Assembly: GCA_947589675.1 (NCBI GenBank)
Contig: CANQCI010000001.1
Location: forward strand, 7,156 to 71,155
DNA length: 64,000 nt
Source: an uncultured Bacilli bacterium
Lineage (GTDB): Bacteria; Bacillota_I; Bacilli_A; RF39; UBA660
Reading direction: 5' to 3'
The notes below the pieces were generated by a model. The model searched no databases, had not been told where the DNA came from, and worked only from the letters and a program-made list of their open reading frames with translations. The position numbers and the translations under genes are program-made. Every line of letters begins with the position of its first letter. Positions within the stretch are counted from its first letter, which is position 1. This document shows positions 32,538 through 64,000 of the stretch, in pieces.

Positions 32538-33191
32538 ATGAAAGTTTTAAAAGAACCAGGGGCAAATAATAAAAGATTTAATAAAGTTAATTTATTTAAA
32601 GTTATTAAATGGCCACTTATGATTTTAATATTAGTATTAGTTTTTTGGTCTGGCACTAAATTATCTGAAAAATTTGAACATGATGAAAAAGCTCTTAGTT
32701 ATGGTTTTAAAGACATGGGTTTTCTTATAACGCAAGAATGGTATGGTTGTATTTTAGAAGATAGTAAAGTTGATCGAAGTTTCTTTGATTTATTTACCAT
32801 CCCTTTAACGGAAAGTAGACAAATATTTAGTATTGATTTTGAAGTTTTTGCAGGAGTTGAATTTGAAGATATCAATTATACTATTGATCATAAAAAGAAA
32901 GAAATTAATGTTTCCCTCCCACATGCGATAATTCAAAATACTTCCCCAGTAGCTGATTCAATGAAAGTCTATCTTGATTCAGAAAGTTGGTTTTCCCGAA
33001 TAGATTTAGAAAGTAATGAAAAAGCTCGCCAATCTATGCAAAAAAATGCGGAACAATTAGCTCTTGATTCGGGCATTTTGGAAAAAGCAGAAAATAATGC
33101 GGAAAAACTAATTACTAATATGATAAAAGGCAATGGCGAATGTGCGAAAAATGCCTGTATAGATTATAATTTTGAATTTAATTATGAATAG
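32538..33191 (+). CDS. DUF4230-like membrane-anchored protein (probable)
   Basis: N-terminal TM helix and a ...FAGVEFEDINYTIDHKKKEINVSLPHAIIQN pattern reminiscent of DUF4230. Confidence 0.4.
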   Translation: MKVLKEPGANNKRFNKVNLFKVIKWPLMILILVLVFWSGTKLSEKFEHDEKALSYGFKDMGFLITQEWYGCILEDSKVDRSFFDLFTIPLTESRQIFSIDFEVFAGVEFEDINYTIDHKKKEINVSLPHAIIQNTSPVADSMKVYLDSESWFSRIDLESNEKARQSMQKNAEQLALDSGILEKAENNAEKLITNMIKGNGECAKNACIDYNFEFNYE

Positions 33192-33296
33192 GTGATAGGA
33201 TGAAAGATGGAAATATTATATTTAAAATAATTGGGGTAATACTTATCTTAATAGTTATACTTTATATTATTTTAATGTTAACTAAATAGGTGAGTT

Positions 33297-33998
33297 ATGA
33301 ATAATAGTGAAAGATTTGAAAAAATATTTATCGATTTTGAAGTAGAAACTAAAAAGAAATTATCTAATAAAGAATTACCGTTAGAAAAGTGTATAACTAT
33401 TTTAAAAGATAAACGTTATAATCCTTATTTTCGGGAGTATGATTTTATTGAGTTTTGCCGTACTATTAGAAATATTAAATTTCATAGTAATGATGATATA
33501 TATTTTTATCTAACGGATGAAACTATTAAGAAGCTAGAGGATATATTAGAAGAAGTTAGGCATCCTTTTACGGTCTTAAGTAAGAGTGTTAGAGATAATA
33601 TATATAAAGCGACCTTGAGTTCTAGTGTTAAAGAAGTAATGCAAGAAATGAATAAACATAATTATACGCACATTCCTATTTATGATGATAAGAACCATAA
33701 ATTAATGGGGATATTTAGTGAATATTCTTTATATGAATATATTTTAAATAATGAAATGGTTTTAATAGATAATAAAACTAATTTTGCCCAAATTATCGAT
33801 TATATTAAAGTAGATAAAGTTAAGGAAAGAGTTCTTTTTGAAGCAAGAAATGCTTTATATGATGATGTTGTTAATAAATTTATTAAAAAATATAAAGAAA
33901 AAAATAAGTTAGAATGTATAATGATTACTGAAAATGGTAAGGATGATGAAAAAGTAATAGGGATTCTTACCATATGGGATATTATAGGAAAAATGTAA
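33297..33998 (+). CDS. CBS-domain protein
   Basis: Two CBS-like segments (VKEVMQEMNKHNYTHIPIYDDKNHKLMGIFSEYSL ; ...ECIMITENGKDDEKVIGILTIWDII). Confidence 0.5.
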   Translation: MNNSERFEKIFIDFEVETKKKLSNKELPLEKCITILKDKRYNPYFREYDFIEFCRTIRNIKFHSNDDIYFYLTDETIKKLEDILEEVRHPFTVLSKSVRDNIYKATLSSSVKEVMQEMNKHNYTHIPIYDDKNHKLMGIFSEYSLYEYILNNEMVLIDNKTNFAQIIDYIKVDKVKERVLFEARNALYDDVVNKFIKKYKEKNKLECIMITENGKDDEKVIGILTIWDIIGKM

Positions 33999-34021
33999 TT
34001 ATAGGAAGAGAGATGTAGAAA

Positions 34022-34462
34022 ATGGCTGATGATTATAAAAAATATGAAGAAGATGTTAAAAAAATAACTAAGAAAAATGAAAGGTATTTAAAGGCTTTTG
34101 AAAACTGGCTTGTAGATAAAAATTTAAGTGAGAAAACTATCAGAAACCATGTCGAAAATGCTGATTTGTATATTAATAATTATTTAACTTATTATGATGC
34201 CAATAAAATGGAAGAGGGAACATCGATGGTATATTCTTTTTTGGATGATTGGTTTATAAGAAAGTGTTTATGGTCATCTGTTGCTTCTATTAAAGCAACT
34301 GCGGCAAGTATTAAAAAGTTTTATCAATGTATGTGTGAACTTGGGTTTGTTAAAAAAGATGATTACGATATGTTATGCCATGTAATTAAAGAAAATATGG
34401 ACGTTTTCATAGATTCATATGAGGAATTTTATGGTGATGATGAAGACGACTTTTGGTTTTGA
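34022..34462 (+). CDS. hypothetical protein with an acidic C-terminus (146 aa)
   Basis: ORF with an RBS. No motif recognised. Confidence 0.4.
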   Translation: MADDYKKYEEDVKKITKKNERYLKAFENWLVDKNLSEKTIRNHVENADLYINNYLTYYDANKMEEGTSMVYSFLDDWFIRKCLWSSVASIKATAASIKKFYQCMCELGFVKKDDYDMLCHVIKENMDVFIDSYEEFYGDDEDDFWF

Positions 34463-34487
34463 TAAATGATAGAAAGGTGGGTTTAAT

Positions 34488-35411
34488 TTGATTTATATAA
34501 CTGGGGATACCCATAGGGATTTTCAAAGATTATATAATAATCCTTTTAAAAAAGATGATATGTTAATTATTCTTGGTGATGCAGGTATTAATTATTATTT
34601 AAATGAAGATGATAGGAAAGTTAAAGACCAATTAAACAAGTTAAATATAAAACTTTTTTGTATCCAAGGAAATCATGAAGAAAGACCAGAAAATATTGCA
34701 ACATATAAAGAAAAAGATATGTTTGGAGGAAAAGTATTTGTTGAAGATGATTATCCTAATTTAATTTTTGCCAAAAATGGTGAGATGTATAATTTGGATG
34801 GGCAAAGTGTCTTAGTTATTGGCGGGGCTTATTCGATTGATAAAAATTATCGCTTAATGTATGGTTATGAATGGTTTAAAGATGAACAATTAAGTGAAGA
34901 TGAGAAAGAATTTATTTTAAATAAATATGCGGGGAAGCATGTGGATATTATTTTATCGCACACTTGTCCTCGGAAGTATGAGCCAACTGAGGTATTTATG
35001 AGCGGGGTTGATCAAACCAAAGTTGATAAAAGTATGGAAGATTTTTTAGATAAAGTAGAAGAAAATATTGATTATAATAAATGGTACTGTGGGCATTATC
35101 ATACCGAAAAACAAATTGCGAAAATTGAGTTTATGTTTGGGAGAATTAAAGTATTTAATAAAGATGAGTTTTATCCCAAATATGCTGAAAATGGTTATGA
35201 AATTATCAGGGACTATTGTCATCAAGAAGATGTTATGGCAAAAGACGTTATTTGTTGTCCGGTGTGTAAGTCCCAAAATATAGTTATTCAAAAAGGCAAT
35301 GGTTTTAAAATTAATGGAGCTGATTATATTGCTTTAATTTGTCATGATTGTCAGAAGATTTATGGCTTTAGTGATGTTAAATATTATCCTAGTTGTCCTA
35401 AAGAATTATAA
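34488..35411 (+). CDS. calcineurin-like metallophosphoesterase with C-terminal zinc-ribbons
   Basis: IYITGDTHRD, LIILGDAGINYY and IQGNHEE motifs; C-terminal CCPVCKS...CHDCQK. TTG start. Confidence 0.7.
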   Translation: MIYITGDTHRDFQRLYNNPFKKDDMLIILGDAGINYYLNEDDRKVKDQLNKLNIKLFCIQGNHEERPENIATYKEKDMFGGKVFVEDDYPNLIFAKNGEMYNLDGQSVLVIGGAYSIDKNYRLMYGYEWFKDEQLSEDEKEFILNKYAGKHVDIILSHTCPRKYEPTEVFMSGVDQTKVDKSMEDFLDKVEENIDYNKWYCGHYHTEKQIAKIEFMFGRIKVFNKDEFYPKYAENGYEIIRDYCHQEDVMAKDVICCPVCKSQNIVIQKGNGFKINGADYIALICHDCQKIYGFSDVKYYPSCPKEL

Positions 35412-35421
35412 GAGGTAAAAT

Positions 35422-35777
35422 ATGAAATATGAAAAATATTTAATAAAAAAGGAAAAGTTGATTTATTGTCTTCATTACAAGCACTAGATAAAAAATTACT
35501 TAAAGAAAAATTAGAAGAATATGATGTTAGGGATATAAATGAATTAAAAGATTTTATTTTAGAAGATTTTGAATTTTGTTTAGATTCATCTAAAGGTGAT
35601 ATAATGACAAGACTCTATTTTGAAAGATTATTAGACCATGAAAATTCTGAATGGATGTCCGCATATGGGGATGATATTGAGAATCTTAACGTTTTTATTT
35701 ATGAGAATGGAGATTATATTTCTTACTATATTCCCACAGAGATTAAGAAAATAACGAAAAAAATATTAGGATTATAA
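35422..35777 (+). pseudogene. small protein gene interrupted by a frameshift in an A6 homopolymer; paralogue of the N-terminal domain of the 37175-38530 protein
   Basis: ATG 35422 reads MKYEKYLIKKEK, then the frame is lost. Frame 0 from 35451 reads ...VDLLSSLQALDKK.... Together these align with MDYDKYVVKSDKEDLLSSLKALDK at 37175. The ORF track starts at TTG 35466. Confidence 0.45.
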
Positions 35778-35921
35778 CTAAAAATAAGACTGAGTATAAA
35801 GAAAAATTGTATTTACTCTTAGAATTAAGAATTTTGAAATTTAAAAATTATCAAGTATTTACCTAAAATAGTAACTATGATATAATAGGACAAATATTTA
35901 TAAATATATAAAGGAAATATT

Positions 35922-36923
35922 ATGAAGAAGTTTTTAGAAAATTATAAATTTACAGATTGTTTTGAGAGTAATATACTTTCTCGTGGGGAAAGATATTACC
36001 AAGAAAATAGAATTTTAGATATATGGTATCAAGATAATAATGTTTATGCTTATGTTGATGGTTCCCAAATTTATAAAATTGGCTTAAAAATTATTGATGG
36101 GGAAATCAATGACTGCTATTGTTCTTGCCCTTATTCAGAACATGGCGAATATATGTGCAAACACCTTGCCGCTGTTTTATATTATCTAGCTGAAAATATG
36201 ATTCCCGAATTGGAAATGGATAATAAAAATAATAAAAGAGTAGATAATGAATCTATGAAACTCAATAAAATTTTTGATGATATGCAATATGAACTAGATA
36301 CAATAAGTGATAGTGATGGTTTTGTAAATTATTATAATGGTAAATATTTTGTAGATTTAATAGAAAATATTTCAGATAAAATAGAAAGTTTTATTGAAGC
36401 AGAAAACTATAATGATGCCTTTTTATTAATAAAACATACTTATTATTTTATAAAAGATACAAGCATGGATGGTTCGAATGGCGAATATCAGGATTCATTT
36501 CGCAAATTGAGTGAGGCAGCTAGCCAATTATTATATGAAGAAAATTATTATCAAAATTATTTAGAATGGGCAAATGATGTTGCTGAGAATGATGATTTAG
36601 ATGATTTTTCTGATGCTCCTTTGTATGCTTTTATTCTTTATGTTCATGATAAAAGTTCTGCTCAAAAAGTAGTTGAAATTTTAGATAATTGTTCTCTATC
36701 ATATGGTATTTTTATTAATAATGTAATAGATCGCATATTATTAGTTCATGATTATATTGGTACAGACGAAGCTATAAAATTATGTTATCAAAATATTGAT
36801 ACTTTTAGAGTAAAAGATAAGTTAATTGAATATTTAGAAGAAGAAAATAGAATAGATGAAATGATAAAACTACAAAAAGATGATATAAAAAATTCTCCAC
36901 ATAATAAGGCGGATTATGATTAA
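35922..36923 (+). CDS. SWIM zinc-finger domain protein
   Basis: CYCSCPYSEHGEYMCKHLAAVLYYL matches the CxCxnCxH SWIM signature. Confidence 0.65.
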   Translation: MKKFLENYKFTDCFESNILSRGERYYQENRILDIWYQDNNVYAYVDGSQIYKIGLKIIDGEINDCYCSCPYSEHGEYMCKHLAAVLYYLAENMIPELEMDNKNNKRVDNESMKLNKIFDDMQYELDTISDSDGFVNYYNGKYFVDLIENISDKIESFIEAENYNDAFLLIKHTYYFIKDTSMDGSNGEYQDSFRKLSEAASQLLYEENYYQNYLEWANDVAENDDLDDFSDAPLYAFILYVHDKSSAQKVVEILDNCSLSYGIFINNVIDRILLVHDYIGTDEAIKLCYQNIDTFRVKDKLIEYLEEENRIDEMIKLQKDDIKNSPHNKADYD

Positions 36924-37174
36924 ATAATTAACTTATATTAAGAAAATAATATGTCTGATGAAAAAGAAGAAATACTATCTGAGGTTATAATAGAAAACAA
37001 TGATTATATGTCTGAATAGTGATTTAATATCCCAAACAAAGTCTAATATTTATTGTAAAAGACTTTTTAAAGAAGAAATAATGAAAGTTTTAAATAATGA
37101 AAATAAAGTGAAGTTTGCTAATTTAATTAGTAATAAAAGGGTAAAAATAATAAACTGAAAGTAAGGAAGTAAAT

Positions 37175-38530
37175 ATGGATTATGATAAATATGTAGTAAA
37201 AAGTGATAAAGAAGATTTATTATCTTCATTAAAAGCTTTAGATAAAACAATAATTAAGGAAAAGTTAAAAGAATATGAAGTTGATAACATATATAAATTA
37301 AAAGATGCTATTTTAAATAAGTTTGAATTATGGGCAAATTCCTCAAAAGACAATATTTTTGCAAAATTGTATTTTAAAAGATTAATGGAATATGAAAATT
37401 ATCATTGGACTTCGACATTTGGTGATGAAGTAGAATTACTTTTTGTTTTTCTTTATGATGATGATCATTCATACTATGTTCCAACTGAGATAAAAGAAAT
37501 AATTAATAAGGTATTTAAAATTGAACAAGTTGAAGAGTATTGGGAAGAACAAAATTTAATGTTAAATCTTGATGAAATGCAAGTTAAAGATTTAAAGGAA
37601 ATGGGCAAGTTTTTACAAATTGATAAATTAAGCAATAAGTCTAAAATAGAACTTTGTATGATAATATATCGTGCTCTTACTAATCAAGATAAATTAACAG
37701 ATTTAATTGGAAGATTTACCACTAAAGAATTTGATTTGCTAAAATTGTTAATGAAAAATTGTGGAAGAGTTGAAGTTGATGGAGATAGAGAGGAACAAAA
37801 TTTTTTGTGTGAATCAGGATTAGGGCTATTACTTAAAGAAGTTGATGGAGATAGATACTATTTTTGTATATTTAAGGCTAGTTATGATGTTATTAAAAAA
37901 ATAGATTTAGAATCTCTTCAAAAAAAAGTAGAGGATAATACCAAGTTATATGATTTAGTTAGAGCTATGGTTGAATTATATGGAGTAGTTTCTAAAGAAG
38001 ATGTGGAATATTGCTATAATTTTTATTATGGTAATGGAAATAATTTAGATGTTCCTTTTGATTTTTTATTACCTCATAACAGAGATGATAATATATGTAT
38101 ATTATCTAAAAAAGATAATTTATATTTTATTCATAAAGACTTAAATGAAGAATCATTAGATATCATAAACAATATTATAGAAAAACATGAGTATATAAAC
38201 AGAAAACCAATTAAATTAAAAGATTTATTAAAATATTCTAATGATGATTATTATGAAAGAACAGAAGCTAAGAATAAATTAAAGAAATATTTAAAAAAGC
38301 AAAATATAAAACCAGAAATTATTGAAATAATTATTAAGATACTTTCTCGTATATATAGAATGAGTGATAGAAGTGAAATTGAAGATTCAGTTAAAGTGCT
38401 TCATGATTTTAGAGTAGAAGTAAATAAAAAAAATATTCAAGAAATCATCGGTTATTTAACAGAAATATATGATAATACTAGAGTATGGGAAAATAATGGC
38501 TGGACATTTAATGAGATGAAAAATAGTTAA
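37175..38530 (+). CDS. hypothetical protein (451 aa) with an N-terminal ~100-aa module shared with the 35422-35777 gene
   Basis: N-terminal LLSSLKALDK..IKEKL.EY..D.I..LKD ... YYVPTEIKEI aligns with the upstream small gene. The remainder is unrecognised. Confidence 0.5.
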   Translation: MDYDKYVVKSDKEDLLSSLKALDKTIIKEKLKEYEVDNIYKLKDAILNKFELWANSSKDNIFAKLYFKRLMEYENYHWTSTFGDEVELLFVFLYDDDHSYYVPTEIKEIINKVFKIEQVEEYWEEQNLMLNLDEMQVKDLKEMGKFLQIDKLSNKSKIELCMIIYRALTNQDKLTDLIGRFTTKEFDLLKLLMKNCGRVEVDGDREEQNFLCESGLGLLLKEVDGDRYYFCIFKASYDVIKKIDLESLQKKVEDNTKLYDLVRAMVELYGVVSKEDVEYCYNFYYGNGNNLDVPFDFLLPHNRDDNICILSKKDNLYFIHKDLNEESLDIINNIIEKHEYINRKPIKLKDLLKYSNDDYYERTEAKNKLKKYLKKQNIKPEIIEIIIKILSRIYRMSDRSEIEDSVKVLHDFRVEVNKKNIQEIIGYLTEIYDNTRVWENNGWTFNEMKNS

Positions 38531-38552
38531 AAAATTAATAATAAATTATATA

Positions 38553-38590
38553 AAAAACAACCTATAATTCATAATTGGTTGTTTTTATTA
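38553..38590. terminator. bidirectional rho-independent terminator between convergent operons
   Basis: AAAAAACAACC-tataattcataatt-GGTTGTTTTT. Confidence 0.45.
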
Positions 38591-38592
38591 AT

Positions 38593-41451
38593 TTAAATAT
38601 CTAGTTTTTCATATCTTGAGTAGTTGTTATCTGTTACCCAAATATTTACAGGACAATTATGGTGTTCTTTTAAATATTTTATATAATCAGCAATAGTATA
38701 TGTATCTAGCCATTCTTGATTATAGTTATTGGCTGGATTTTTTTCGTTAATTTTTTCTAAATTTTCTTTAAATTTTTTATAAGAATAAATGGTGGCTTTT
38801 TTATTATCTTTTGAAACTGCATAAAATACTTTCTTATCTAAAATATTGGTATCTTTAATTTCCTTGAAGATATTTGTAACTAAATTTTTGTTTTCTGGTT
38901 TACTATACCCGCAGATAATATCATAGCTTATGGCAAAATCACTCCCTAATTTTTGAGCTAAATCTTCGATATCTATGTCGTATTCTTTTTTAATTCCGTA
39001 GTATTTTAAAATTTCATAACGATTTTTGACAATCTCAGCAAATTCGTTTTTAAAATAGTGATTTTTGTCTAAACCATTTGCCATATCTAATAAATGTTTA
39101 TGAATACCATTGGTTCCCCCGATAACACCATCATCAATTTTTAATTCAATAAATTTAACTTTTTTATGTTCAAAATCAATAAATATATTATCAATACGTC
39201 CTTTTTTATTTTCCCGACTTCTTCCATTTTCAGGTATTGTTTCATCTTGGTTGTTTTCTTCATCAATTTCTTGTTCACTTTCTTTTTTTAAGTCTTTATT
39301 TGAAGCATAGAAAGTAAATTCCATTTCAAAAGGTATATCATTTTTCGTAAAAGGAGAAAGGGAAGCTTGAGCCATATCTTTTCTTCCTATTTTTGTTGCC
39401 ATTTTGGAAACTAAAGTTTGTTGAAAACTTTTTTCGCTATCAGTTCGAGTTTTAGCAAAGTCATTATCATAGTTACCTGCAAGTCCGGCGTAAATTTCAG
39501 CTCTTCTGGTCATAATATCCATTAAAGTATCAAAAGAAGTGCTATAATCAAATGCCGTTTCTTTTAGTCTAAAATTTACTTGTAAAGATTGAAAACCAGT
39601 TGGTTCTTTTGTTTTTAGATACTCATCATTTTCTTTTTTTAATTTAAAACCAGTTTGGGTATAACAAAGTAATTTTAATTTAAAAGCTTTTTCTAAATCA
39701 ATACTTTCTTCTTTGTTTATTGTTAAACAATAGCCTTTAGCTTCACCTTTATTTCTTGGGAAATATTCTGTAAAGTCATCGATTGGGACAATTGCTTGCA
39801 AATTTTCTTTAATTCGTTGGGCATTTTTTAGTTTATCTACTCCTTTTTCACTTGTTGAAAAAGGTAATTTAAATTTATTACTGGCATATTCTAATTTAAA
39901 ACCAATTGTCTTTAATGATTCATAATCATCGTTTACTTTTTGGTATGGTTTAATTTCGGTTATTTTATTTGCACAGGCTAACTCCATTAAATCATCGGCG
40001 TTGGTGTAATTAGGCAAGAACAATGAAACATTTAATATAATAGCCCCATTATAAAAATCAAATAATTTTACTCCTTTATAATAAACTTTAACTTCTGGCT
40101 TTTCTTTGGTGCCCCTGATTCTTAAACATATGTTATTTTTATCTTTTGATGGATTATAAAAATAATTAAAAAAATGGGTTGCTTTTTCTTTATTATCCAT
40201 GCTTACTTCGACATCTTCATTTTCTTTAACTAATATTACATTATCAAGGACATTTACTAGTTCTTCTGGTTTAGTTGTATGAATGGGAATAACTTTTTGA
40301 GCCTTTAGACTATTAAGTAAAGCAATTGTTTGGCGATCAGCATGACCTGATGTATGTAAATCAACAATCTCCTTGATGCCATATTTTTTAATTTCGTCTA
40401 AAAAGTTTTGCATATCTTCCTTTTCTTTATAACCACTCCACATAGAATAAATTAGACAGGCATTTGTAATATATCCTTTGGAAGCAAGCTTTTGAATTGC
40501 TTCTAACATGGAAGCTTTTATTAGAAAACAATATTTTTTATTTTGATAAGCCTTTTGTTTTGCACATCTACGAAGATTATTCACATACTTTTGTTTAAAT
40601 TCTAAACTCTTTCTTAAATATTTGGAAATTACCCATACATATACATCGTCATTATCATATGGATTAGGAATAGTAGCATCTTTTAAACGAACAGCTAAAT
40701 TGGCTGTAAACAAATCTTCAATAAAAGTTTTTCCTGTCGTTTTAGTGACTTGATAAAAACCTTTTAAACGATCGATATTAGTGGATGATTGTAAGATAAA
40801 AACTTGATCATACTTCTTAAAATATTCCTTAGCTCTGATCATTAAATGTTCTTCCGTTTCGTTGACAACTTCTGGGCGACTTAAGGAAGTCCCCTCAGTT
40901 ATAAGCATATCTACATGACCAATGGCTTTTAAGGTGGGCTTGAAATCCTTACCATTTAAACCATTATTACGAAAGTCGCCAGTATGAAGGATTCTTTTGC
41001 CATCCGCTTCGATTAAAATCATGGCGGAGTGATAAGCGGAATGATCGACAAAGTAGGGGGTAATTCGCATATCTTTAATTGTAATAGTTTTATTAAAAGG
41101 CATATCTAAGGTATTAAAACGGATACTTTTGGAGGTAAAAACTGATAATAATGTATATATTTTTTTCGAAATATCTTCAACATAAACCGGAATATCATCT
41201 AATATATAGTGAATTAAACCAATATGATCCCCATGACTATGGGTGATAAAGACCGCATCATACGTTTTATCCCCAGTTGTTAAACCATCAATCTTCGGAT
41301 TTTTGATTCTTTTTGTGGCATTATCATCCGGTAAATCTTCCCCAAAATCAATAATAATTCGTGTTCCTTGATTACTGGTAATTTCGGTAATACAACCACC
41401 AATTTGGTTGGTACCTTTTAAAATTCTAACTTTCATTTTTACATCTCCCAT
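38593..41451 (-). CDS. large two-nuclease-domain protein: N-terminal MBL/beta-CASP (RNase J-like) plus C-terminal PD-(D/E)xK-like domain
   Basis: N-terminus: FITHSHGDHIG (HxHxDH) ... later HTSGHA (beta-CASP motif C-like). C-terminus: GRIDNIFIDFEHKKVKFIELKID (D...ExK). The start may be the second ATG (41436), which has a GGAGA RBS. Confidence 0.55.
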   Translation of the reverse strand: MGDVKMKVRILKGTNQIGGCITEITSNQGTRIIIDFGEDLPDDNATKRIKNPKIDGLTTGDKTYDAVFITHSHGDHIGLIHYILDDIPVYVEDISKKIYTLLSVFTSKSIRFNTLDMPFNKTITIKDMRITPYFVDHSAYHSAMILIEADGKRILHTGDFRNNGLNGKDFKPTLKAIGHVDMLITEGTSLSRPEVVNETEEHLMIRAKEYFKKYDQVFILQSSTNIDRLKGFYQVTKTTGKTFIEDLFTANLAVRLKDATIPNPYDNDDVYVWVISKYLRKSLEFKQKYVNNLRRCAKQKAYQNKKYCFLIKASMLEAIQKLASKGYITNACLIYSMWSGYKEKEDMQNFLDEIKKYGIKEIVDLHTSGHADRQTIALLNSLKAQKVIPIHTTKPEELVNVLDNVILVKENEDVEVSMDNKEKATHFFNYFYNPSKDKNNICLRIRGTKEKPEVKVYYKGVKLFDFYNGAIILNVSLFLPNYTNADDLMELACANKITEIKPYQKVNDDYESLKTIGFKLEYASNKFKLPFSTSEKGVDKLKNAQRIKENLQAIVPIDDFTEYFPRNKGEAKGYCLTINKEESIDLEKAFKLKLLCYTQTGFKLKKENDEYLKTKEPTGFQSLQVNFRLKETAFDYSTSFDTLMDIMTRRAEIYAGLAGNYDNDFAKTRTDSEKSFQQTLVSKMATKIGRKDMAQASLSPFTKNDIPFEMEFTFYASNKDLKKESEQEIDEENNQDETIPENGRSRENKKGRIDNIFIDFEHKKVKFIELKIDDGVIGGTNGIHKHLLDMANGLDKNHYFKNEFAEIVKNRYEILKYYGIKKEYDIDIEDLAQKLGSDFAISYDIICGYSKPENKNLVTNIFKEIKDTNILDKKVFYAVSKDNKKATIYSYKKFKENLEKINEKNPANNYNQEWLDTYTIADYIKYLKEHHNCPVNIWVTDNNYSRYEKLDI

Positions 41452-41457
41452 TCTTTT

Positions 41458-42504
41458 TTAATGAATAATATACCAAGCATTTCTTTTAAAATCATAGCCG
41501 ATATTTTTATAAATTTTATTATAATCATGCATATAACGTTCGACACTTCTAAGGGTAAGCGAAAACTTTTTAGCAATTTCCTTAGTCGTAACTATATCCT
41601 TCTTTTTTAAATAAAGATGGATTTTTTCTAAAGATGCTTTTTTGTTTTTGGATAGTTTTATTTTTTTACTATTTAAAAGATATTTATAATAAAGTTCAAG
41701 GATAGAGTCATCATCAGGATATTCTTGATTAACGAAATAAATATTACTATATTTTAAATGATAAAAATTTAGCTTTTTTTCATCCTCGGTAAGTATATAG
41801 ACAAATTGAAAGTGATTAAATAGTTTACGATATTTTTTATCGATTTCCATAATCTCTTTTAAGGGTAACTTATCTTCGCCGATAATCAGTAGAAACCCTT
41901 GTTTCCTTTTTAAATCTTCCAGTTTATCAACTTTCTTTATATACGGAAAATGGAAATGATTTTCCTTAGTAAATTCATCTAGTTCTCTTTTATCGATTAA
42001 AGAATAATATAGGGAACCACAAAGATAAACGTTTCGTGACATTTGGGCTAAATCACTATCTTTAGGATAAATTTCAAATACTTTTAAAGGATAAGATTGT
42101 GCATCAATTTCCTGTAGTAATTCTTGTTGTCTTCTCAAAATATAAAAATATTCAGTCTTTTCATAATCACAAACTATTTTTAAAACTTTAGGTTCAATTT
42201 TTAAAAAAATAATAAAATCACAATCAACAATTTGGGTACTAAATAAAGGCTTTCCTTTTTCAATTTTGATTTGTTCTTCCATTCTTTTTCGTTCATTATC
42301 TGTTACATACCATTTTTCAATTGCCCCAAATTCTTTAATTAGTAATTCATCTAAGACATGATTATAAAGTTTTCCCATAGCCATAAATTGATAAATCTTT
42401 TGGATGGAAGTTTCACTGGCTGATAATACTAAAACTTTTTTATCTTGATTTTCTAAAAGAATTTTTTTTAACCGATTTAACTTTTCATTCATATTTTTCT
42501 CCAA
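41458..42504 (-). CDS. hypothetical protein with a C-terminal helix-turn-helix
   Basis: C-terminal ...DIVTTKEIAKKFSLTLRSVERYMHDY is HTH-like. It lies 6 bp upstream of the 952-aa gene. Confidence 0.45.
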   Translation of the reverse strand: MEKNMNEKLNRLKKILLENQDKKVLVLSASETSIQKIYQFMAMGKLYNHVLDELLIKEFGAIEKWYVTDNERKRMEEQIKIEKGKPLFSTQIVDCDFIIFLKIEPKVLKIVCDYEKTEYFYILRRQQELLQEIDAQSYPLKVFEIYPKDSDLAQMSRNVYLCGSLYYSLIDKRELDEFTKENHFHFPYIKKVDKLEDLKRKQGFLLIIGEDKLPLKEIMEIDKKYRKLFNHFQFVYILTEDEKKLNFYHLKYSNIYFVNQEYPDDDSILELYYKYLLNSKKIKLSKNKKASLEKIHLYLKKKDIVTTKEIAKKFSLTLRSVERYMHDYNKIYKNIGYDFKRNAWYIIH

Positions 42505-42556
42505 AGAAACATCTGTTACTATATATTTATTATAGCATGTCTTGATAATAATGAGG

Positions 42557-43129
42557 TTAAAAATTTTTCATAGTTAAATGATTAATAGAACTTACTTGCC
42601 AATTGGTGAAATTATATTTTTTAAATCCTTTTTCATTCATAAATAAGATAATTTGGGCATTATATCTTTTACTATATTTTTCAATGGTATTTTTTAGACA
42701 TTTAAAACTTTTGGTAGTATTTTTTAATAAATCTTCTAAACTATCAATAATAATCATTTGATATTCATTATCAAAATCAAAGATAATATCAACCCAGTCT
42801 TGTTCGGGAAATACTTTAGAACTACTAATAACTATATTAGCATGTCTAACTTTTTCTAAAGCTAAAATAAAATCTTGGACATTTATTTTTTGTTCTTTTA
42901 AAGCATTGGTTTTAGCTCCCACGGGAAACATATAGCTTTCTATTACTTGAAAATTAATTTTCGAAAGATGCGAGATTAAACGATTAACGTAATAGGAAGT
43001 ACGTAACAAAAAAGATTGCATATAAATAGTTTTTTGTTCTTTGATACCATATAAATCGAGAATATTAATAAGGAGAGGAATCCTTTCTTTAGGATTCCTG
43101 CTATAAATTAAAGATATACGTTCATTCAT
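42557..43129 (-). CDS. hypothetical protein (190 aa)
   Basis: ORF overlapping the upstream gene by 4 nt (ATGA). No motif recognised. Confidence 0.4.
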   Translation of the reverse strand: MNERISLIYSRNPKERIPLLINILDLYGIKEQKTIYMQSFLLRTSYYVNRLISHLSKINFQVIESYMFPVGAKTNALKEQKINVQDFILALEKVRHANIVISSSKVFPEQDWVDIIFDFDNEYQMIIIDSLEDLLKNTTKSFKCLKNTIEKYSKRYNAQIILFMNEKGFKKYNFTNWQVSSINHLTMKNF

Positions 43130-43890
43130 AGCTCATCATCAATTTTCAACACCTTATCTGTTTTTGAATCTAACTCAATCAAAAAAGTTTGCTCAAATAA
43201 ATTAAGGCTAACTGTTAATGATTCTTTATTAACATTTGATACTTTCCCCACCATATCTTTAAAAGCACCATTTAATATTTGCACTTTATCATCTTTCTTA
43301 ATATCTTCAAAAGCTGTGAACTCTTTTGGAATTTCTTCTTTCTTAGTGATTGTTCTTTCTTTAAGATAAGGTCGTAAATCAAATGGTTGGGGTTTTACTT
43401 CTGGGACATCTAATCCATAAAAATATTTATTGATACAAAATATTTCAAAATCTCTTGTTTGATTGGCTAGGGCTACATCATAATCATAAAATTCGAAGAC
43501 ATAATCAATATATTCATCAAGTCCTTCCATGTTTTTGTTTGCTCTTAATGCCTTACATTGGGTAATGATATCTTCATTTTCCTTGAGTAAATCATTTAAT
43601 TCATCGGGGTTATAATGATATTTTTTTGAGTAACTAGCCATCGGCAATTTTGGTAAGGGGGCTTTTACTTTGGCAACTTCTAGTCCATAAAAGTACTTCA
43701 CAATACAATATAAGATATATTTAAATTCCAAATCGTCCTCATGATGCATTGCCATATAAATTAATCGGTTAATATATTGTCTTACTCCTTTCTTCCGATA
43801 ATTCTTTTTTAATTCAAGCATTTGTTCAATAATGTTATCTTTTGACCTAATGATGTTGGCTACCTCCTTCGTTGCTCTAATAGAATACAT
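43126..43890 (-). CDS. KOW-domain protein with an internal tandem repeat (NusG-paralogue-like C-terminus)
   Basis: The C-terminal KDDKVQILNGAFKDMVGKVSNVNKESLTVSLNLFEQTFLIELD matches the NusG KOW pattern. Two internal repeats, KYFYGLEVAKVKAPLPKLP and KYFYGLDVPEVKPQPFDLRP. No obvious NGN domain. Confidence 0.5.
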   Translation of the reverse strand: MYSIRATKEVANIIRSKDNIIEQMLELKKNYRKKGVRQYINRLIYMAMHHEDDLEFKYILYCIVKYFYGLEVAKVKAPLPKLPMASYSKKYHYNPDELNDLLKENEDIITQCKALRANKNMEGLDEYIDYVFEFYDYDVALANQTRDFEIFCINKYFYGLDVPEVKPQPFDLRPYLKERTITKKEEIPKEFTAFEDIKKDDKVQILNGAFKDMVGKVSNVNKESLTVSLNLFEQTFLIELDSKTDKVLKIDDEL

Positions 43891-48506: not shown

Positions 48507-49970
48507 GTGAAAATTTATGATAAGCTAATAAATAGAATTAGTGAAACAAAATATTTAAATGCCGAAAATTCCTATCGCTATCGACCCATTATGCGGGTAT
48601 TTTATAATCATTATATTAAGTTAGAATATTGGCTTTATAAAGAAGATATTTATAATGAATTAAAAGATAATGCCATATTTAGTGAGTATACTTTAGATGA
48701 TTGCGAACGAGATTTAGATATATTAACTGAATGGTTAAGTTTAACAAGACTTCAAGATACCAAAAATGCTTTATCACTTCCAGAATTTAAAAATAAAAAA
48801 TTTCGTTATCAAATGACTGAGTATGCTACCGAGATTGAAAGATTAGTCATATCTTTAGAAGAATTGGAAATCAAGGCTTCTTCATTGGAACCTAAATTGT
48901 TTGATCGCTTAAAAGATACAATTGCTAAATTAGAAAATACTATTTCTTTAAGTCCTGATGAAGTTAACGAAATATGGAATGATTTAAATGATAATTTTAC
49001 AAAACTAAATGAAAGTTATCAAGATTTCTTAAAGAAATTTAATGAACCTAAAACTGAGGAGTTATTTCAAGGAGAAGCATTTTTAAAATATAAAACGGAA
49101 ATAATAAGTTATTTAAGAAATTTTATTCAAAGTTATCAACAAAATATAAATAAGATAAAATATAGTATAAACAAAATTGATGAAGAAATAAAATTAGATT
49201 TTATCAATAAATTAGTAAGATATAATGAACAAAATCCCTTATTAAATCAAAATTTTGATTTTGGTTATTTTAAAGAATTAAATTTTGATAAACTAACTAA
49301 TATTTTGAAATGGTTTGTTAGTAATGATTCTACCTTAAGTGAAGGTCAAAAATTAATGGATACAACCGATAATATTATTGTTTCTCTTACCAAGTATGCC
49401 AATTCTTTAATTGAACTGCGAGGGAATATGACTAGCCGCAAGGAGGAATATAAACATCTTTGTCAACAATTTGATAAAATAAGTAACATGGATGAAGCTC
49501 ATAGACTTGCTGCGGTTATCTTAGGTATAAGTAATGTTAGACATTTTTTAGGAAATTCTAATATTACGACTGATACAATTGTAAATACTTATGATAATCC
49601 ACCTCTGGAAATAATTTTATCATCAAGAACCAAAAAACGAAAAGAAAAGATTGATTTAAAACCTATTGAAGATAAAACGCTGGCGAAAAGAAAAATTTTA
49701 GAGGAATATCGTTTAGAGCAAGAAAAAAATAAAGAAATATTAAAGAGTTTGATAAAGAATAAAAAAATAATTTTAGAAAATGAGAGACAATTAACGAAAA
49801 TTGAACGCCGGTATATTCAAAAATTATTAGCATCATCGCTAACACATAAAGAAACGGAATTTGGGCTAAGTTATAAAATCAAGAAAAAAGAGGGAACATG
49901 TAAAATAGTATCGGAGGATGGAATATTTTATATGCCAAGTTTAGATATAGAATTTATGGGGGATATATGA
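48507..49970 (+). CDS. jetA: Wadjet JetA (TIGR02677/DUF3375 family, kleisin-like)
   Basis: The N-terminal NAENSYRYRPIMRVFY motif is characteristic of TIGR02677. 487 aa. GTG start after an AAGGGGGAAAA RBS. Confidence 0.75.
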   Translation: MKIYDKLINRISETKYLNAENSYRYRPIMRVFYNHYIKLEYWLYKEDIYNELKDNAIFSEYTLDDCERDLDILTEWLSLTRLQDTKNALSLPEFKNKKFRYQMTEYATEIERLVISLEELEIKASSLEPKLFDRLKDTIAKLENTISLSPDEVNEIWNDLNDNFTKLNESYQDFLKKFNEPKTEELFQGEAFLKYKTEIISYLRNFIQSYQQNINKIKYSINKIDEEIKLDFINKLVRYNEQNPLLNQNFDFGYFKELNFDKLTNILKWFVSNDSTLSEGQKLMDTTDNIIVSLTKYANSLIELRGNMTSRKEEYKHLCQQFDKISNMDEAHRLAAVILGISNVRHFLGNSNITTDTIVNTYDNPPLEIILSSRTKKRKEKIDLKPIEDKTLAKRKILEEYRLEQEKNKEILKSLIKNKKIILENERQLTKIERRYIQKLLASSLTHKETEFGLSYKIKKKEGTCKIVSEDGIFYMPSLDIEFMGDI

Positions 49971-51136
49971 TAGATAAACATACAAAAGAATTAGAATATT
50001 TATTAAATAATTTTTGGTGTCTTAAAGATCAAAATCCTAGCTTATATTGGGAAATAAAAAATAATTTAGATTATTATAAAGACTTTGTCCAAACGAAATT
50101 AGGAAGTGTGCTTATTGTTAACGATCGTTTAATAAAATTAGAAAAGATTCCCACTATTCCTAAGGCTTATATGGGAATTAATGCTTTTGGGCAACCTTTA
50201 GAATATGTTCTTTTATTTCTTATTTTATTATTTTTAGAAGATAAACCAAAATCTAAACAATTTATTCTTTCTAATTTAATTGATTTTATTGATAATACGG
50301 CAAGAGGATTAGAGCTTGATCATTTACCGGATTGGAATATATATCAACATCGGAAATGTTTAGTTAATGTGATGCATCATTTGGAAGATATGGGGATTAT
50401 TAAGGTAGTTGACGAAATCTATAATTTTTCGGAGGATAAACAGGCTGAGGGGTTATATGAATCAACTGGGATATCAAATTATTATATTCGCAGATTTCAA
50501 AATAATATTTTAAATTATGAAACAATTGAAGATTATTTAAATGATGAATATACTAAGTATACCGATAAGGATATAAAAAGAATGAAAATTTATCGAAATT
50601 TATTATATTCACTCGTTATTTATCCAGAAGAGTTAACGGAGTTTGAATGGGATTACTTACGCAAATTTCGGGGAACTATAAGTAATGAATTAAGTAAATA
50701 TACGGATGGGGAATTAGAAATCACTAAAAATATGGCATTACTTTTATTTCCTATGGAAGGACGTCAAAGTTATGATTTTCCTAATTCTAAAGCTATATGT
50801 GATATTATTTTATTAATTAATAATTATCTTTTAGAATTAGTAGATAAAGGGGAATTACAATTAAATCAACAAGAAATAATTGTTATATCAGAAGAATATT
50901 TCAAAAGAATTATTAAAGAAGTTAGAAATGAATCAGGTTTATATTTTAGTAAATATTATAAAGATTTATCTTTTACTAGTTTTTATCAAGATATAGTAGA
51001 ATGTATGCAGGAATATGATTTTCTGAAAATAAATGATTTAGAAGTTAAAATATATCCTATGGTTTCAAAATTAATTGGGTATATACCGCAAGATCCTTTA
51101 CAACAATTAGATTTATTTGGGGGTAATTATGAATAG
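49967..51136 (+). CDS. jetB: Wadjet JetB (TIGR02678-like)
   Basis: 389 aa. Its start overlaps the jetA stop (ATGA) and it lies between jetA and jetC. The assignment rests on position and size. Confidence 0.6.
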   Translation: MIDKHTKELEYLLNNFWCLKDQNPSLYWEIKNNLDYYKDFVQTKLGSVLIVNDRLIKLEKIPTIPKAYMGINAFGQPLEYVLLFLILLFLEDKPKSKQFILSNLIDFIDNTARGLELDHLPDWNIYQHRKCLVNVMHHLEDMGIIKVVDEIYNFSEDKQAEGLYESTGISNYYIRRFQNNILNYETIEDYLNDEYTKYTDKDIKRMKIYRNLLYSLVIYPEELTEFEWDYLRKFRGTISNELSKYTDGELEITKNMALLLFPMEGRQSYDFPNSKAICDIILLINNYLLELVDKGELQLNQQEIIVISEEYFKRIIKEVRNESGLYFSKYYKDLSFTSFYQDIVECMQEYDFLKINDLEVKIYPMVSKLIGYIPQDPLQQLDLFGGNYE

Positions 51137-59023: not shown

Positions 59024-59293
59024 ATGGAAGATAGCGATTTAAAACAATTAGAACAACAAGAAGATATGGTTATAGGTAATTTTGAAATTCCTATCGATAA
59101 AATGACTACAATATCTTTAACTGAAAAAGAAGTAAAACAGGCAAATGCAGCAAAACAAAGATATGATAAAATGGCTGTTGTTCGTGATCAAATGGGAAAA
59201 ACAGCTAAAACTAGTTCTTTGTTATTTGGCTATAATAAAAAAGGAATAAAACTTGCTGATGGTGATTATATAAGTGCCCCAGAATTATCCTAA
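59024..59293 (+). CDS. N-terminal fragment of an interrupted gene (89 aa); an in-frame TAA separates it from 59426-61108
   Basis: Same reading frame as the downstream ORF. The 44 intervening codons are stop-free and protein-like. Confidence 0.4.
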   Translation: MEDSDLKQLEQQEDMVIGNFEIPIDKMTTISLTEKEVKQANAAKQRYDKMAVVRDQMGKTAKTSSLLFGYNKKGIKLADGDYISAPELS

Positions 59294-59425
59294 GCTATTA
59301 TAGAAGCTGTTGCTAATTTAAAAGAAGGTACTAAGGTTGTAAGTCGTAAAGGAAAAACACTTAATCCTGATGATTTATTAGCAACAGTAAAAGAAGCTGC
59401 TGGTGCTATTATTGTAACCGAAAAA

Positions 59426-61887: not shown

Positions 61888-62940
61888 ATGAAAGTATTGT
61901 TAAATGTAACCTTGGGTGAAATTGCAAATAAAATTAATAGACAAATTGAAGTAGATGAAAATATAAGTTTAAGAGACTTATGTGAATATATAATTGTTTC
62001 TATGAATGGAAGTAAAATTCCTATTTATGAATTTGTAGATGGTAATATTACATATAATCCTTATTTTATTGAAGAGACTAATAGGGATAAATATATCGAT
62101 AAAATTTTATTTAAAGATTTACATTTAAAAAAAGATAAACAATTTACTTTAGAATATAATTTTGATAAAAATTATTATTTTGAAATAGTAGTTGATGATA
62201 TTTATGAATCACAAGATAAATCAGAATTTAAAGTAATATCTGGAAAAGGCTATGGAATAATAGATAATAAATCGCTATATGATTTAATGGCAATATTTAA
62301 GTATTCAGAAGATAGATTACTAAAAACTGAAAAAGAATATTTAAAAAAAACATTTGATTGTGATGAATGTAATAATAATATAACTAATTATATAGCTGAT
62401 AGAAAAGAAATGTTTTTACCTAAAAGATTTGTTTTTAATGTTTCCCTATATGGTTTTGAAAAAGAAATTAAAAGAAAAATTATTGTAGATAATGATATAT
62501 CAATTAGTGATTTTTGTAAATGTGTGATTGTCGCAATGAATGGTGATTTATCACATTTATATGGGATTAAAATGGGGAAAGAATATTTAAATGAATGGTA
62601 TGATGATTTAGGATTATTTTACCTTAATTTAAAAGAAAAACAAAAATTAAAAATTATTTATGATTGGGGTGATAATTGGTTATTTAATTTAACATTAAGT
62701 AAGATAATCCCAATCGATGATTATGGCGATGAGGATTTTCAAGTAATATCTGGCAAAGGCTATGGAATAATTGATGATGCTGGAGGAGTATGGAGACTTC
62801 GAGATATATTTGATGGTACAGATACTAGTTGGGGTATTTACGATATTAATGATTTTGATTTAAATGAATGCAATGAAAATATAAGAAAATATGCCGTAAG
62901 AAGTAGTATAAAATACAATAGAATAAATCCATCTAATTAA
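61888..62940 (+). CDS. hypothetical protein built from two tandem copies of a ~170-aa domain (possibly pRiA4b ORF3-like)
   Basis: The repeat units share ...I.VD.NIS..D.C..I.V.MNG ... and F[KQ]VISGKGYGIID. Confidence 0.45.
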   Translation: MKVLLNVTLGEIANKINRQIEVDENISLRDLCEYIIVSMNGSKIPIYEFVDGNITYNPYFIEETNRDKYIDKILFKDLHLKKDKQFTLEYNFDKNYYFEIVVDDIYESQDKSEFKVISGKGYGIIDNKSLYDLMAIFKYSEDRLLKTEKEYLKKTFDCDECNNNITNYIADRKEMFLPKRFVFNVSLYGFEKEIKRKIIVDNDISISDFCKCVIVAMNGDLSHLYGIKMGKEYLNEWYDDLGLFYLNLKEKQKLKIIYDWGDNWLFNLTLSKIIPIDDYGDEDFQVISGKGYGIIDDAGGVWRLRDIFDGTDTSWGIYDINDFDLNECNENIRKYAVRSSIKYNRINPSN

Positions 62941-62963
62941 GTTTGATAAACTAAATATAAATT

Positions 62964-63389
62964 ATGAAAGTGAGTGAAGTTAAAATGAAAGTAAATTTAG
63001 ATAATGTTATAAGTATGTTAGAATTAGTGAATATTGCAGATGCCCTAGCATATTTCAATAAAAAAACAAAGAGATTTAGTCATATAAGTAAATACTCAGA
63101 TATGACTGACGATGAAAAAGCAAAGATGTTGGAGAATTGTATAGAACTTCCTACTAAAAAGGATATTGATGAAGAACATGGTATGGTGGAAGACTTTATA
63201 AAGGGGATAAAAGATGTTGAGCTTTATAATCAATTACAAGCTACCCTTAATGAGCAGGAGGCTTTTAGAAGATTCAAAACCACATGTATTAATTTAGGGA
63301 TATTTGGAGATTGGTATGGGTTTAGAGAAAAAAAGTATAAAGAAATTGCCATCGAATGGTGTAATAAAAATAATATTAAATTTGCATAG
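62964..63389 (+). CDS. UPF0158-family protein
   Basis: ...EQEAFRRFKTTCINLGIFGDWYGFREKKYKEIAIEWCNKNNIKF matches the conserved C-terminal signature of UPF0158. Confidence 0.5.
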   Translation: MKVSEVKMKVNLDNVISMLELVNIADALAYFNKKTKRFSHISKYSDMTDDEKAKMLENCIELPTKKDIDEEHGMVEDFIKGIKDVELYNQLQATLNEQEAFRRFKTTCINLGIFGDWYGFREKKYKEIAIEWCNKNNIKFA

Positions 63390-63439: not shown

Positions 63440-64000
63440 ATGTATAACGAAGATTTATATGATTTATTAGATGAATTATGGGATAAAAGTTCAAAAGAAA
63501 AAATTAAAGAATTTTTATTTAGGATAATTGAAAAATTATCAGATAAGCAAAACAAGGAAGTAATAGAACTTATTAACGAGGTCTTTAAAGATGAAATAAA
63601 GACTATTAATTTAGGGGATTTAGATCAAATAATCGAGGAGATTGAAGAGCAGTTTGATTTAATTGATGGTGGTATATTGCAATTTCATGGTGAAGCTGAT
63701 GATTACTTTTATGATGATTATGAACTTAGCTATGATGATCCAGAAAATATCAGTGGTACAATCTTAAATGCTTATAACTTAGCTTCTATTTTAATTGCCA
63801 AAAAGGATTATAGGAATGCTAAAAGACTTCTTGATTTAATTGTTTTTACTAATTATTCTATTTTAGAAGATGATACAGATGATATTTTGGATTATGAAAT
63901 AGATGACATTGAATCTTATGGATTAGTTGATATAGATTTAAATAAAATATGTTTAACTTTATTATTTATTACTATATTAATTGGTGATAATAAATTTGAA
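63440..64000 (+). CDS. hypothetical acidic protein, 3' end outside the window
   Basis: ATG 63440 after a GGAGATG RBS. The reading frame stays open to the window edge. Confidence 0.4.
   Translation, partial: MYNEDLYDLLDELWDKSSKEKIKEFLFRIIEKLSDKQNKEVIELINEVFKDEIKTINLGDLDQIIEEIEEQFDLIDGGILQFHGEADDYFYDDYELSYDDPENISGTILNAYNLASILIAKKDYRNAKRLLDLIVFTNYSILEDDTDDILDYEIDDIESYGLVDIDLNKICLTLLFITILIGDNKFE

Follow-up and report, generated by a model that had tools for sequence, protein, structure and literature searches.

A probable decaying accessory-gene patch with a SWIM-family pseudogene and one intact gene of a rare protein family in a gut Bacilli genome

Background

The kinases HipM, HipI and HipJ have putative antitoxins encoded downstream of them in kinase-first order (hipMP, hipIN and hipJS; PMC8262856). 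The protein family at the centre of this study, which we refer to by its 451-aa member, resembles these loci in that its genes are found directly downstream of a HipA_C kinase gene, with a short gap, in 11 of 31 species-level loci that were gathered through the family itself. However, the partner in these loci is a protein of ~463 aa without similarity to HipS, HipB, HIRAN or resolvase, and the family pairs equally often with DUF6429. Moreover, neither a HipA-like gene nor a DUF6429 gene is detected by tblastn or HMM in the 64-kb window, that is, the whole stretch of 64,000 nucleotides of DNA that was analysed, so the member described here is not adjacent to a kinase.

A second point of comparison is a bacterial SWIM subfamily of ~518 aa (SWIM-518), which carries no annotation beyond 'SWIM zinc finger family protein'. 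Distant relatives under the same annotation are located on Bacillus and haloarchaeal plasmids, and the context of one of them on a Bacillus thuringiensis plasmid consists of just recombinases and transposases. Polyimmunity loci are known from polymorphic toxin systems, and the gene arrays described below bear some likeness to them. Literature searches for UPF0158, PRiA4_ORF3, MM3350, DUF6904, DUF6429 and pRiA4b found no functional study.

Results and discussion

Features of the region

The region lies in the low-GC (~26%) genome of an uncultured gut Bacilli bacterium. The initial annotation described a cluster of three genes in which a SWIM zinc-finger protein is flanked by two proteins sharing an N-terminal module. 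We favour, with a probability of roughly 0.6, the reading that this is a decaying accessory-gene patch in a variable island, which retains an orphan, putative partner of a kinase module. The patch holds the relic of a module gene (psi-module), a SWIM-family pseudogene and one intact 451-aa gene. The features discussed below are as follows; the guild to which some of them belong is a set of recurrently associated families.

34022..34462, + strand: 146-aa protein with an integrase SAM-like (core-binding) domain and nothing else in it
34488..35411, + strand: neighbouring gene, metallophosphoesterase with a C-terminal zinc ribbon
35422..35777, + strand: disrupted module gene (psi-module), frames differ; the module HMM matches 35442-35771
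35445..35709 and 37199-37463, + strand: DNA direct repeat corresponding to the duplicated module (72% identity, 265 nt)
35922..37137, + strand: SWIM-family pseudogene (tblastn, HMM, frame translations, blastn against L008)
37175..38530, + strand: 451-aa protein, family F0, the only intact gene of the trio
61888-62940, + strand: tandem-PRiA4_ORF3 protein, 350 aa, in a second guild patch (61888..63389)
62964-63389, + strand: UPF0158 protein, 141 aa, after the tandem-PRiA4_ORF3 gene in the second patch
63638-63979: start of a gene related to a 240-aa protein of L008, after the UPF0158 gene of the second patch

As for the island context, Abi_2 is found upstream and positions 48507-56430 hold a Wadjet-type system; Wadjet also adjoins the 451-aa family in two other loci (L019 and L051). 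Non-coding RNAs and tRNAs in the gaps were considered and ruled out.

The SWIM-family gene

The middle gene had been described as a 333-aa SWIM protein. Its finger is genuine. The ORF at 35922-36923 carries C67-x-C69-x9-C79-x-H81 (CxCx9CxH), it matches Pfam PF04434 with 35.5 bits against a cut-off of 19.6 (E=6.9e-9), and C67, C69, C79 and H81 are invariant across the family alignment. However, the protein is not intact, and the 333 aa represent a truncated relic of a family whose members have 515-537 aa and are 57-66% identical to the ORF over its first 333 residues. In-frame stops are present at 36921 and 36939 while homology runs on to 37007, approximately 117 codons (~351 nt) are missing at 37008-37020, and for its final ~39 codons (37021-37137) the reading moves to the +1 frame. 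With P0075 as the query, tblastn places residues 1-362 at 35922-37007 and residues 480-518 at 37021-37137, and the family HMM covers positions 1-334 and 481-518 of 518. The lesions are borne out by translating the separate frames and by a blastn comparison with L008. A full-length SWIM-518 protein would be uninterrupted over 515-537 aa and include the conserved C-terminal region of ~185 residues; the window copy shares their N-terminal CxCx9CxH finger but is a pseudogene lacking about a third of the protein.

UPF0158 is the usual partner of the SWIM family, located 10 nt upstream of the family gene in five of nine distinct contexts. No UPF0158 gene immediately precedes the window copy, and the nearest one, at 62964, is ~26 kb away. 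The PADLOC candidate PDC-S62 (566 positions) is matched only at positions 8-105, which correspond to the SWIM region, rather than over its full profile; the same positions are matched by the window ORF and by the full-length homologue P0076.

The small module gene

The small gene could not be upheld as originally drawn. The interval 35422-35777 has a length of 356 nt, not divisible by three, and its ATG at 35422 belongs to frame 1, whereas the module is encoded in another frame. The module ORF is 35466-35777 and specifies 103 aa when counted from an internal TTG. Joining both frames requires that one base be put back into the run ATAAAAAAGG (35443-35452), which has undergone a 1-nt deletion in its A6-GG stretch (35445-35452) at codon 10-11. 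At this site intact homologues have ATAAAAAAAGG or ATAAAAAAGGG (A7GG or A6GGG). With the base restored the product consists of 118 aa beginning MKYEKYLIKKGKVDLLSSL, and the intact homologues start MKYEKYLIKKGK.

Each of the eight closest relatives of psi-module, with 64-71% identity, is the N-terminus of a full-length protein of ~463 aa, while its identity to the module of the adjacent 451-aa gene is 53%. A neighbour-joining tree computed on only ~120 residues also places it among the full-length genes. Because of this grouping with N-termini of full-length genes, psi-module probably descends from a second full-length gene that has lost its 3' part (the C-part).

It is possible, though unlikely, that the small ORF is instead a functional stand-alone module gene, translated either from the TTG at 35466 or, as a 118-aa product, by -1 slippage. 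The family has many stand-alone module proteins with 117-139 aa, the end of the ORF coincides exactly with the domain boundary, and a Shine-Dalgarno-like AGGAA is located ~10 nt 5' of the TTG. As in dnaX-type sites, the zero frame of psi-module contains the heptamer A AAA AAG, the slip site of dnaX, and a -1 shift there gives back the ancestral sequence. In contrast to such sites, the heptamer arose by the 1-nt deletion, is followed by no stimulatory structure (z=0.52) and is absent from the homologues; since these are in frame, the slip site is not conserved. A programmed -1 ribosomal frameshift was rejected for these reasons. Further arguments against function are that the 103-aa form is missing its N-terminal 15 residues, conserved D14, L15 and L16 among them, and that the sequence groups with full-length genes rather than with stand-alone lineages. 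The 103-aa module ORF and the 333-aa SWIM product could nevertheless still be made.

The shared module

The similarity between the two flanking proteins is well supported, with ORF 35466-35777 aligning to residues 16-116 of the 451-aa protein at 50% identity and 75% positives (E=4e-31). A recent tandem duplication was considered and rejected, since the module copies share 53% identity with one another but 64-71% with genes of other genomes. These identities show the copies to be diverged homologues from separate lineages, and we find no evidence that they are functionally paired. A second module copy is seen only in the window, each of 31 genome and 17 metagenome loci having a single one; recurrent two-module loci, as homotypic adaptor pairing would predict, are thus not observed.

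The module is ~118 residues in length. We considered whether it might be a common generic domain. It is not: it occurs in 84 clusters among 1.84 billion representatives, and belongs to a rare family of gut Bacilli proteins that is so far undescribed. When the three proteins were scanned, neither the module nor the C-part was recognised by a Pfam, NCBIfam, PHROG or PADLOC model. A single weak hit linked the module to the Ocr DNA mimic (PF08684) with 14.5 bits, below the cut-off of 25 (E=0.052), and the fold of the module matches nothing among PDB solved structures or viral structures. The proposed modular reuse is borne out, and extended, by the family as a whole. The module is found as a stand-alone protein, N- or C-terminal to the C-part, and fused to PRiA4_ORF3 (P0073, P0180) or to SEC-C-tailed proteins (P0072, P0248). 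A split form consisting of 125-aa and 346-aa genes is present in L008.

The 451-aa protein

In the 451-aa protein the module takes up residues 1-117, and a disordered linker (118-124) connects it to the C-part (~125-451). The protein keeps the invariant columns of its family. The C-part is predicted to contain winged-helix-like units, and its C-terminal motif NNxRxWxNNGWTPxE is conserved. None of 73 homologues has a Pfam domain, and no Pfam HTH match is found in the protein itself. The family is unmatched in phage, plasmid and IMG/VR collections, and profile searches with both families against PDB sequences returned only low-complexity noise.

The AF2 model (pLDDT 88.1) has a secondary structure compatible with a winged helix. 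Foldseek hits to MarR, SarS, F93 and ScpB extend over stretches of 60-110 residues (E 0.2-2, probabilities up to 0.96), and the weak matches also include MAGE-type winged helices. None of the fold matches is significant (best PDB E=0.036, best viral E=0.38), so a winged helix or DNA binding is weakly suggested. We infer that the family comprises cytoplasmic partner proteins that probably bind nucleic acids.

The second half of the C-part, including a WxNxGxT motif, is homologous to the region of P0278 that lies between PRiA4_ORF3 and SEC-C. This homology and the module fusions to both types connect the family with PRiA4_ORF3 (PF07929) and SEC-C proteins. However, no PRiA4_ORF3 domain and no SEC-C motif are present in the 451-aa protein itself.

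Gene neighbourhoods

Besides the kinase, several families recur next to the 451-aa family at the 31 loci. DUF6429 adjoins it in 10 and UPF0158, often following, in nine; PRiA4 is near it in five and adjoins it in at least six loci. The gaps are ~10-100 nt and the genes are on the same strand. A SWIM gene lies within 10 kb in only two of the 31, one of which is a fragment. The expectation that the three families would be neighbours elsewhere is satisfied by exactly one other genome (L008/L037), but with a PRiA4_ORF3 gene between them.

At the level of families, the module and the C-part are members of a small, lineage-restricted, mix-and-match guild. Its further members are PRiA4_ORF3, the SEC-C tail, UPF0158, DUF6429, the stand-alone integrase SAM-like domain, SWIM-518 and the HipA-like kinase, and they are linked by fusions, splits, one domain-order permutation and tight same-strand adjacency. 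The 146-aa protein upstream of psi-module belongs to this guild. Genes encoding only the integrase SAM-like domain are found directly upstream of 346-aa C-part-alone genes in three other genomes (L038-L040). Metallophosphoesterase-like genes likewise recur in guild arrays (L007, L060).

Arrays of this kind might also be immunity or antitoxin-type, 'polyimmunity-like' arrays formed by the module, the C-part, PRiA4_ORF3, UPF0158, DUF6429, DUF6904 and SWIM, in which case the window would hold an orphan array. The arrays are indeed same-strand runs of small, acidic, cytoplasmic proteins that are promiscuously fused among themselves, and in L048 a stand-alone module comes after a 256-aa protein whose N-terminus is WXG-like and which weakly matches a glucosaminidase. 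However, L048 is a single occurrence, most loci have no recognisable polymorphic toxin beside the families, and none of the guild families was found as an immunity family in the searchable literature. We regard this explanation as quite improbable.

A HipA-like kinase as the putative partner

The upstream kinase (~397 aa) has hits to Pfam HipA_C and to PDC-M03A, a candidate defence component in PADLOC. No conserved gene, and specifically no conserved HTH gene, is found upstream of it. In one locus (L016) the kinase is disrupted and the partner gene is intact. The converse, an intact kinase with a broken partner, was not seen among the loci examined, a statement biased by the fact that the 451-aa family itself served to collect the loci. 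The family occurs with DUF6429 about as often as with the kinase, and hence is no dedicated antitoxin.

In the decaying-patch reading, the 451-aa family would normally share its operon with a HipA-like Ser/Thr kinase or, alternatively, DUF6429, and in many cases with UPF0158 as well. By analogy, it may act as a regulator, antitoxin-like neutraliser or sensor of a kinase-based toxin or abortive-infection module. The protein would use the module as an exchangeable domain for docking to other proteins, and the gene in the window an orphan that has outlived its partners.

A more far-reaching proposal, which we offer only tentatively, is that the module is a new exchangeable docking domain and that HipA-like kinase, module plus C-part, and UPF0158 constitute, in this order, an undescribed kinase-based system of three components in gut Bacilli, of the toxin-antitoxin or abortive-infection type. 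Alternative partners would be DUF6429, PRiA4_ORF3, SWIM-518 and the stand-alone integrase SAM-like domain, and the window would contain one orphan component of such a system and two relics.

Unlikely readings: an interacting trio or sequencing errors

The cluster was originally suggested to be an interacting set. On that view the shared module would join the small module protein, the SWIM protein and the 451-aa protein into one functional system whose members bind each other. The module is a real, mobile domain, and in L008 SWIM, PRiA4, module, C-part and UPF0158 genes occupy a single same-strand array. Against this, two of the three genes in the window are disrupted, no other locus has two modules, and neither the scarcity of SWIM genes near the 451-aa family nor the association of SWIM with UPF0158 fits such a trio. 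The lesions and the missing co-occurrence largely refute this view, and we consider it very unlikely. Since two of three genes are broken and the trio is not conserved, the locus is better described as a decaying island patch than as a working SWIM system.

That all three genes are really intact, with the frameshift and stops being sequencing or assembly errors, is extremely unlikely: the frameshift does fall in a homopolymer run, a classic error site, but the cluster sequence is 100% identical across four independent metagenome assemblies from different runs, so the lesions are not one-off assembly errors, and the SWIM gene has several independent lesions, among them a ~351-nt deletion beyond any base-calling error.

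Conclusions

For the window itself our result is mainly corrective. The 'SWIM cluster' reflects gene decay in a fast-turnover island, and the gene models of the small module gene and the SWIM gene should both be annotated as pseudogenes. Two domains, the module and the C-part, are newly defined and are tied to PRiA4_ORF3, UPF0158, DUF6429, the SEC-C tail and SWIM-518, all families of 'unknown function'. The general impact is modest because the families occur only in gut Bacilli that are uncultured and have small genomes. Nevertheless, the recurrent order of HipA-like kinase, 463-aa protein and UPF0158 provides a testable handle on these families, and the 463-aa protein would add a new type of partner to Hip kinase modules.

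A decaying gene block in a variable island

The window (G+C about 26%) carries the following features.

35466-35777, plus strand: module reading frame, 103 aa
35922-36923, plus strand: SWIM reading frame, 333 aa
37175-38530, plus strand: 451-aa reading frame, intact
38593-43890, minus strand: convergent block of four genes, no PADLOC system match
48507-56430, plus strand: Wadjet-type system of four genes
61888-63389, plus strand: second guild patch (tandem PRiA4_ORF3, then UPF0158)

The first three reading frames form a block that lies downstream of Abi_2, HtrA, RDD, DUF4230 and CBS genes and whose far end abuts the convergent minus-strand operon. A related genome has other cargo behind the same Abi_2/HtrA anchor (restriction-modification genes, Fic, an AAA protein and a recombinase), so the region is a variable island. 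No Rfam family was found in 33000-39500, and no tRNA in the whole window.

The initial annotation read 35422-35777 as one small gene that shares an N-terminal module with the 451-aa protein. The shared module is real: the 103-aa frame is 50% identical to residues 16-116 of the 451-aa protein (E=4e-31), and a repeat common to both copies is visible in the DNA (72% identity across 265 nucleotides). The single reading frame is not, as the ATG at 35422 of this 356-nucleotide interval is out of frame with the module. Translation from this ATG reads MKYEKYLIKKEKL... and meets a stop codon once 21 codons have passed. Putting one base back in ATAAAAAAGG (35443-35452) yields MKYEKYLIKKGKVDLLSSL..., in agreement at every residue with the N-termini of homologues; at the frameshift site these read ATAAAAAAAGG or ATAAAAAAGGG. 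The region is 100% identical across four separate assemblies, and the lesion therefore belongs to the strain.

A recent tandem copy of the neighbouring module is rejected, since, once restored, the 118-aa sequence shares only 53% identity with the module of the adjoining 451-aa gene vs 64-71% with the N-termini of full-length proteins (about 463 aa) in other genomes. Programmed -1 frameshifting was also considered, because a slip at the zero-frame heptamer A_AAA_AAG, a by-product of the deletion, would restore the ancestral protein. However, no structure was found 3' of the heptamer (z=0.52) and the site is not conserved in homologues, so we do not take it to be a programmed site. The small gene probably represents the 5' part of another full-length gene that has otherwise been lost, although stand-alone module genes exist elsewhere.

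The zinc finger of the 333-aa frame, C67-x-C69-x9-C79-x-H81, is genuine (PF04434, 35.5 bits), but this frame is not a whole gene, as had been supposed: nearly all of its 96 homologues, the SWIM-518 family, are 515-537 aa. In tblastn alignments, residues 1-362 of the homologue P0075 map to 35922-37007, crossing two in-frame stops (a TAA at 36921 and another stop at 36939), and residues 480-518 map in a different frame to 37021-37137. Thirteen nucleotides stand in place of about 117 codons. Nucleotide identity to the intact gene of L008, a homologous locus in another genome, is 75% in the body and 92% in the tail. By its sequence, the SWIM gene is a pseudogene.

Thus the two module copies are truly homologous, and the block consists of two pseudogenes and one intact gene. 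We place the probability of these structural and decay conclusions at roughly 0.85.

The four products of the convergent block are 254, 190, 348 and 952 aa long. The 254-aa protein ends in a NusG/KOW-like region, with weak matches to UpxY and NusG; the 190-aa protein is of unknown function; the C-terminal region of the 348-aa protein is HTH/WYL-like; and in the 952-aa protein an N-terminal MBL/beta-CASP (RNase J-like) nuclease is joined to about 500 residues of unknown function. These genes may form an operon that supplies its own antiterminator. The Wadjet genes encode DUF2397 (487 aa), DUF2398 (389 aa), 1362-aa and DUF3323/DUF2399/JetD_C (421 aa) proteins, and the same system adjoins the module family at two other loci (L019, L051). 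The second guild patch, 23 kb from the first, encodes a 350-aa protein with both PRiA4_ORF3 domains and a 141-aa UPF0158 protein (50% identical to the L008 copy), after which a relative of a 240-aa protein of L008 lies at 63638-63979. At 59024-61108 (plus strand), an 89-aa frame and a 560-aa protein have a K-x-(A/N)-(D/G)-GDY-(I/L)-SA motif in common; the latter has a proline-rich stretch, a hydrophobic segment and no Pfam match, and two small frames (97 and 95 aa) separate it from the patch.

The 451-aa protein and its domains

Among 5.8 billion clusters, the 451-aa protein has 73 homologues (E≤1e-3), which lack Pfam domains save for two distant fusion proteins. The family was not found in phage, plasmid or IMG/VR collections. 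AlphaFold models the protein with confidence (pLDDT 88.1). In the model, residues 1-117 form the module, which is helical and includes a small beta-hairpin; residues 118-124 are a disordered linker; and the C-part has repeated helix-helix-helix-strand-strand units and a helical tail, closed by a conserved NNxRxWxNNGWTPxE motif. Foldseek returned no significant match in PDB or BFVD, its weak matches being mostly winged-helix proteins (MarR/RdhR, SarS, ScpB, MAGE, F93), and profile searches against PDB sequences gave nothing. Within the gene, a perfect 18-nucleotide direct repeat, GAAGTTGATGGAGATAGA (37772-37789 and 37838-37855), encodes EVDGDR twice in the first winged-helix-like unit, where the protein departs from the family consensus.

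A module profile built from 21 sequences finds 84 clusters among 1.84 billion representatives, many of them stand-alone proteins of 117-139 aa. The module is N-terminal in proteins of 442-465 aa among the representatives and 451-479 aa among homologues of the 451-aa protein, follows the C-part in permuted proteins (P0174, L041-43, L062), follows PRiA4_ORF3 (P0073, P0180), and is C-terminal to unknown domains of about 190 or 510 aa. In further proteins it is internal, with a SEC-C tail (P0248) or a Cys-rich tail (P0242). Module and C-part are split genes in L008 (125 and 346 aa), several clusters are C-part-only proteins of 346 aa, and the C-part's only remote relative, P0278 (PRiA4_ORF3 and SEC-C), has the tail motif in common. 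This distribution of sequences marks the module as a rare, mobile domain.

Gene neighbourhoods

We counted neighbours at 31 species-level loci of the 451-aa family, all in uncultured gut Bacilli or their allies (MAGs from rabbit, mouse and ruminants; CAG:822, Coprosoma, Coprovivens). A HipA_C kinase of about 397 aa, matching PADLOC candidate PDC-M03A, lies directly upstream in 11 of the 31, with no conserved gene upstream of it across the loci. DUF6429 (about 87 aa) is directly adjacent in 10, UPF0158 adjacent in 9, and PRiA4_ORF3 nearby in 5. A stand-alone integrase SAM-like domain, of which the window gene at 34022-34462 is a homologue, directly precedes C-part-only genes at three loci. In metagenome contigs, stand-alone modules adjoin DUF6904, UPF0158 with PRiA4, AbiEii, or a Wadjet system; the DUF6904 protein (240-244 aa) is directly upstream in four (L056, L057, L060, L061).

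The three genes of the block had been proposed as an interacting set, but the trio is not conserved: SWIM-518 is near the 451-aa family at 2/31 loci (one a fragment), and the module family is near SWIM-518 only in L008 and the window. SWIM-518 instead has UPF0158 10 nucleotides upstream in 5 of 9 distinct contexts, and RhuM is often downstream. UPF0158 (134 aa) and SWIM-518 behave as a two-gene cassette that moves between unrelated flanks (L009-L015, L065-L067), often followed by the RhuM gene and with serine recombinases in the vicinity. The module family, PRiA4_ORF3, and the integrase SAM-like domain paired with the C-part are likewise flanked by UPF0158, which seems to be a small partner shared by several larger proteins. 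These families form a guild whose members are fused, split or adjoining. Pseudogenes are common in it: L016 and L044 hold further decayed copies, the module and C-part gene of L044 (4754-6014) lying in at least four pieces. In L016 (8751-9941) a stop splits the HipA-like kinase and the partner gene is intact.

A possible partner of Hip kinases

Other Hip families have kinase-first operons with putative antitoxins downstream (PMC8262856), an order resembling that of the HipA_C kinase and the 451-aa family. The latter could tentatively be the partner of a HipA-like kinase module, probably binding nucleic acids and acting as a regulator, an antitoxin-like protein or a sensor, with the shared N-terminal module as its exchangeable docking domain. 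We give this reading low odds because the DUF6429 pairing is equally frequent, no fold match is significant, and no HipA-like gene occurs in the 64-kb window, which also has no DUF6429 gene; the window's 451-aa copy would then be an orphan. The initial annotation was correct in its sequence observation but over-read function, and the feature in the window is ordinary island decay. Its modest interest lies in drawing attention to an undescribed domain family and to a possible new partner of Hip kinases.
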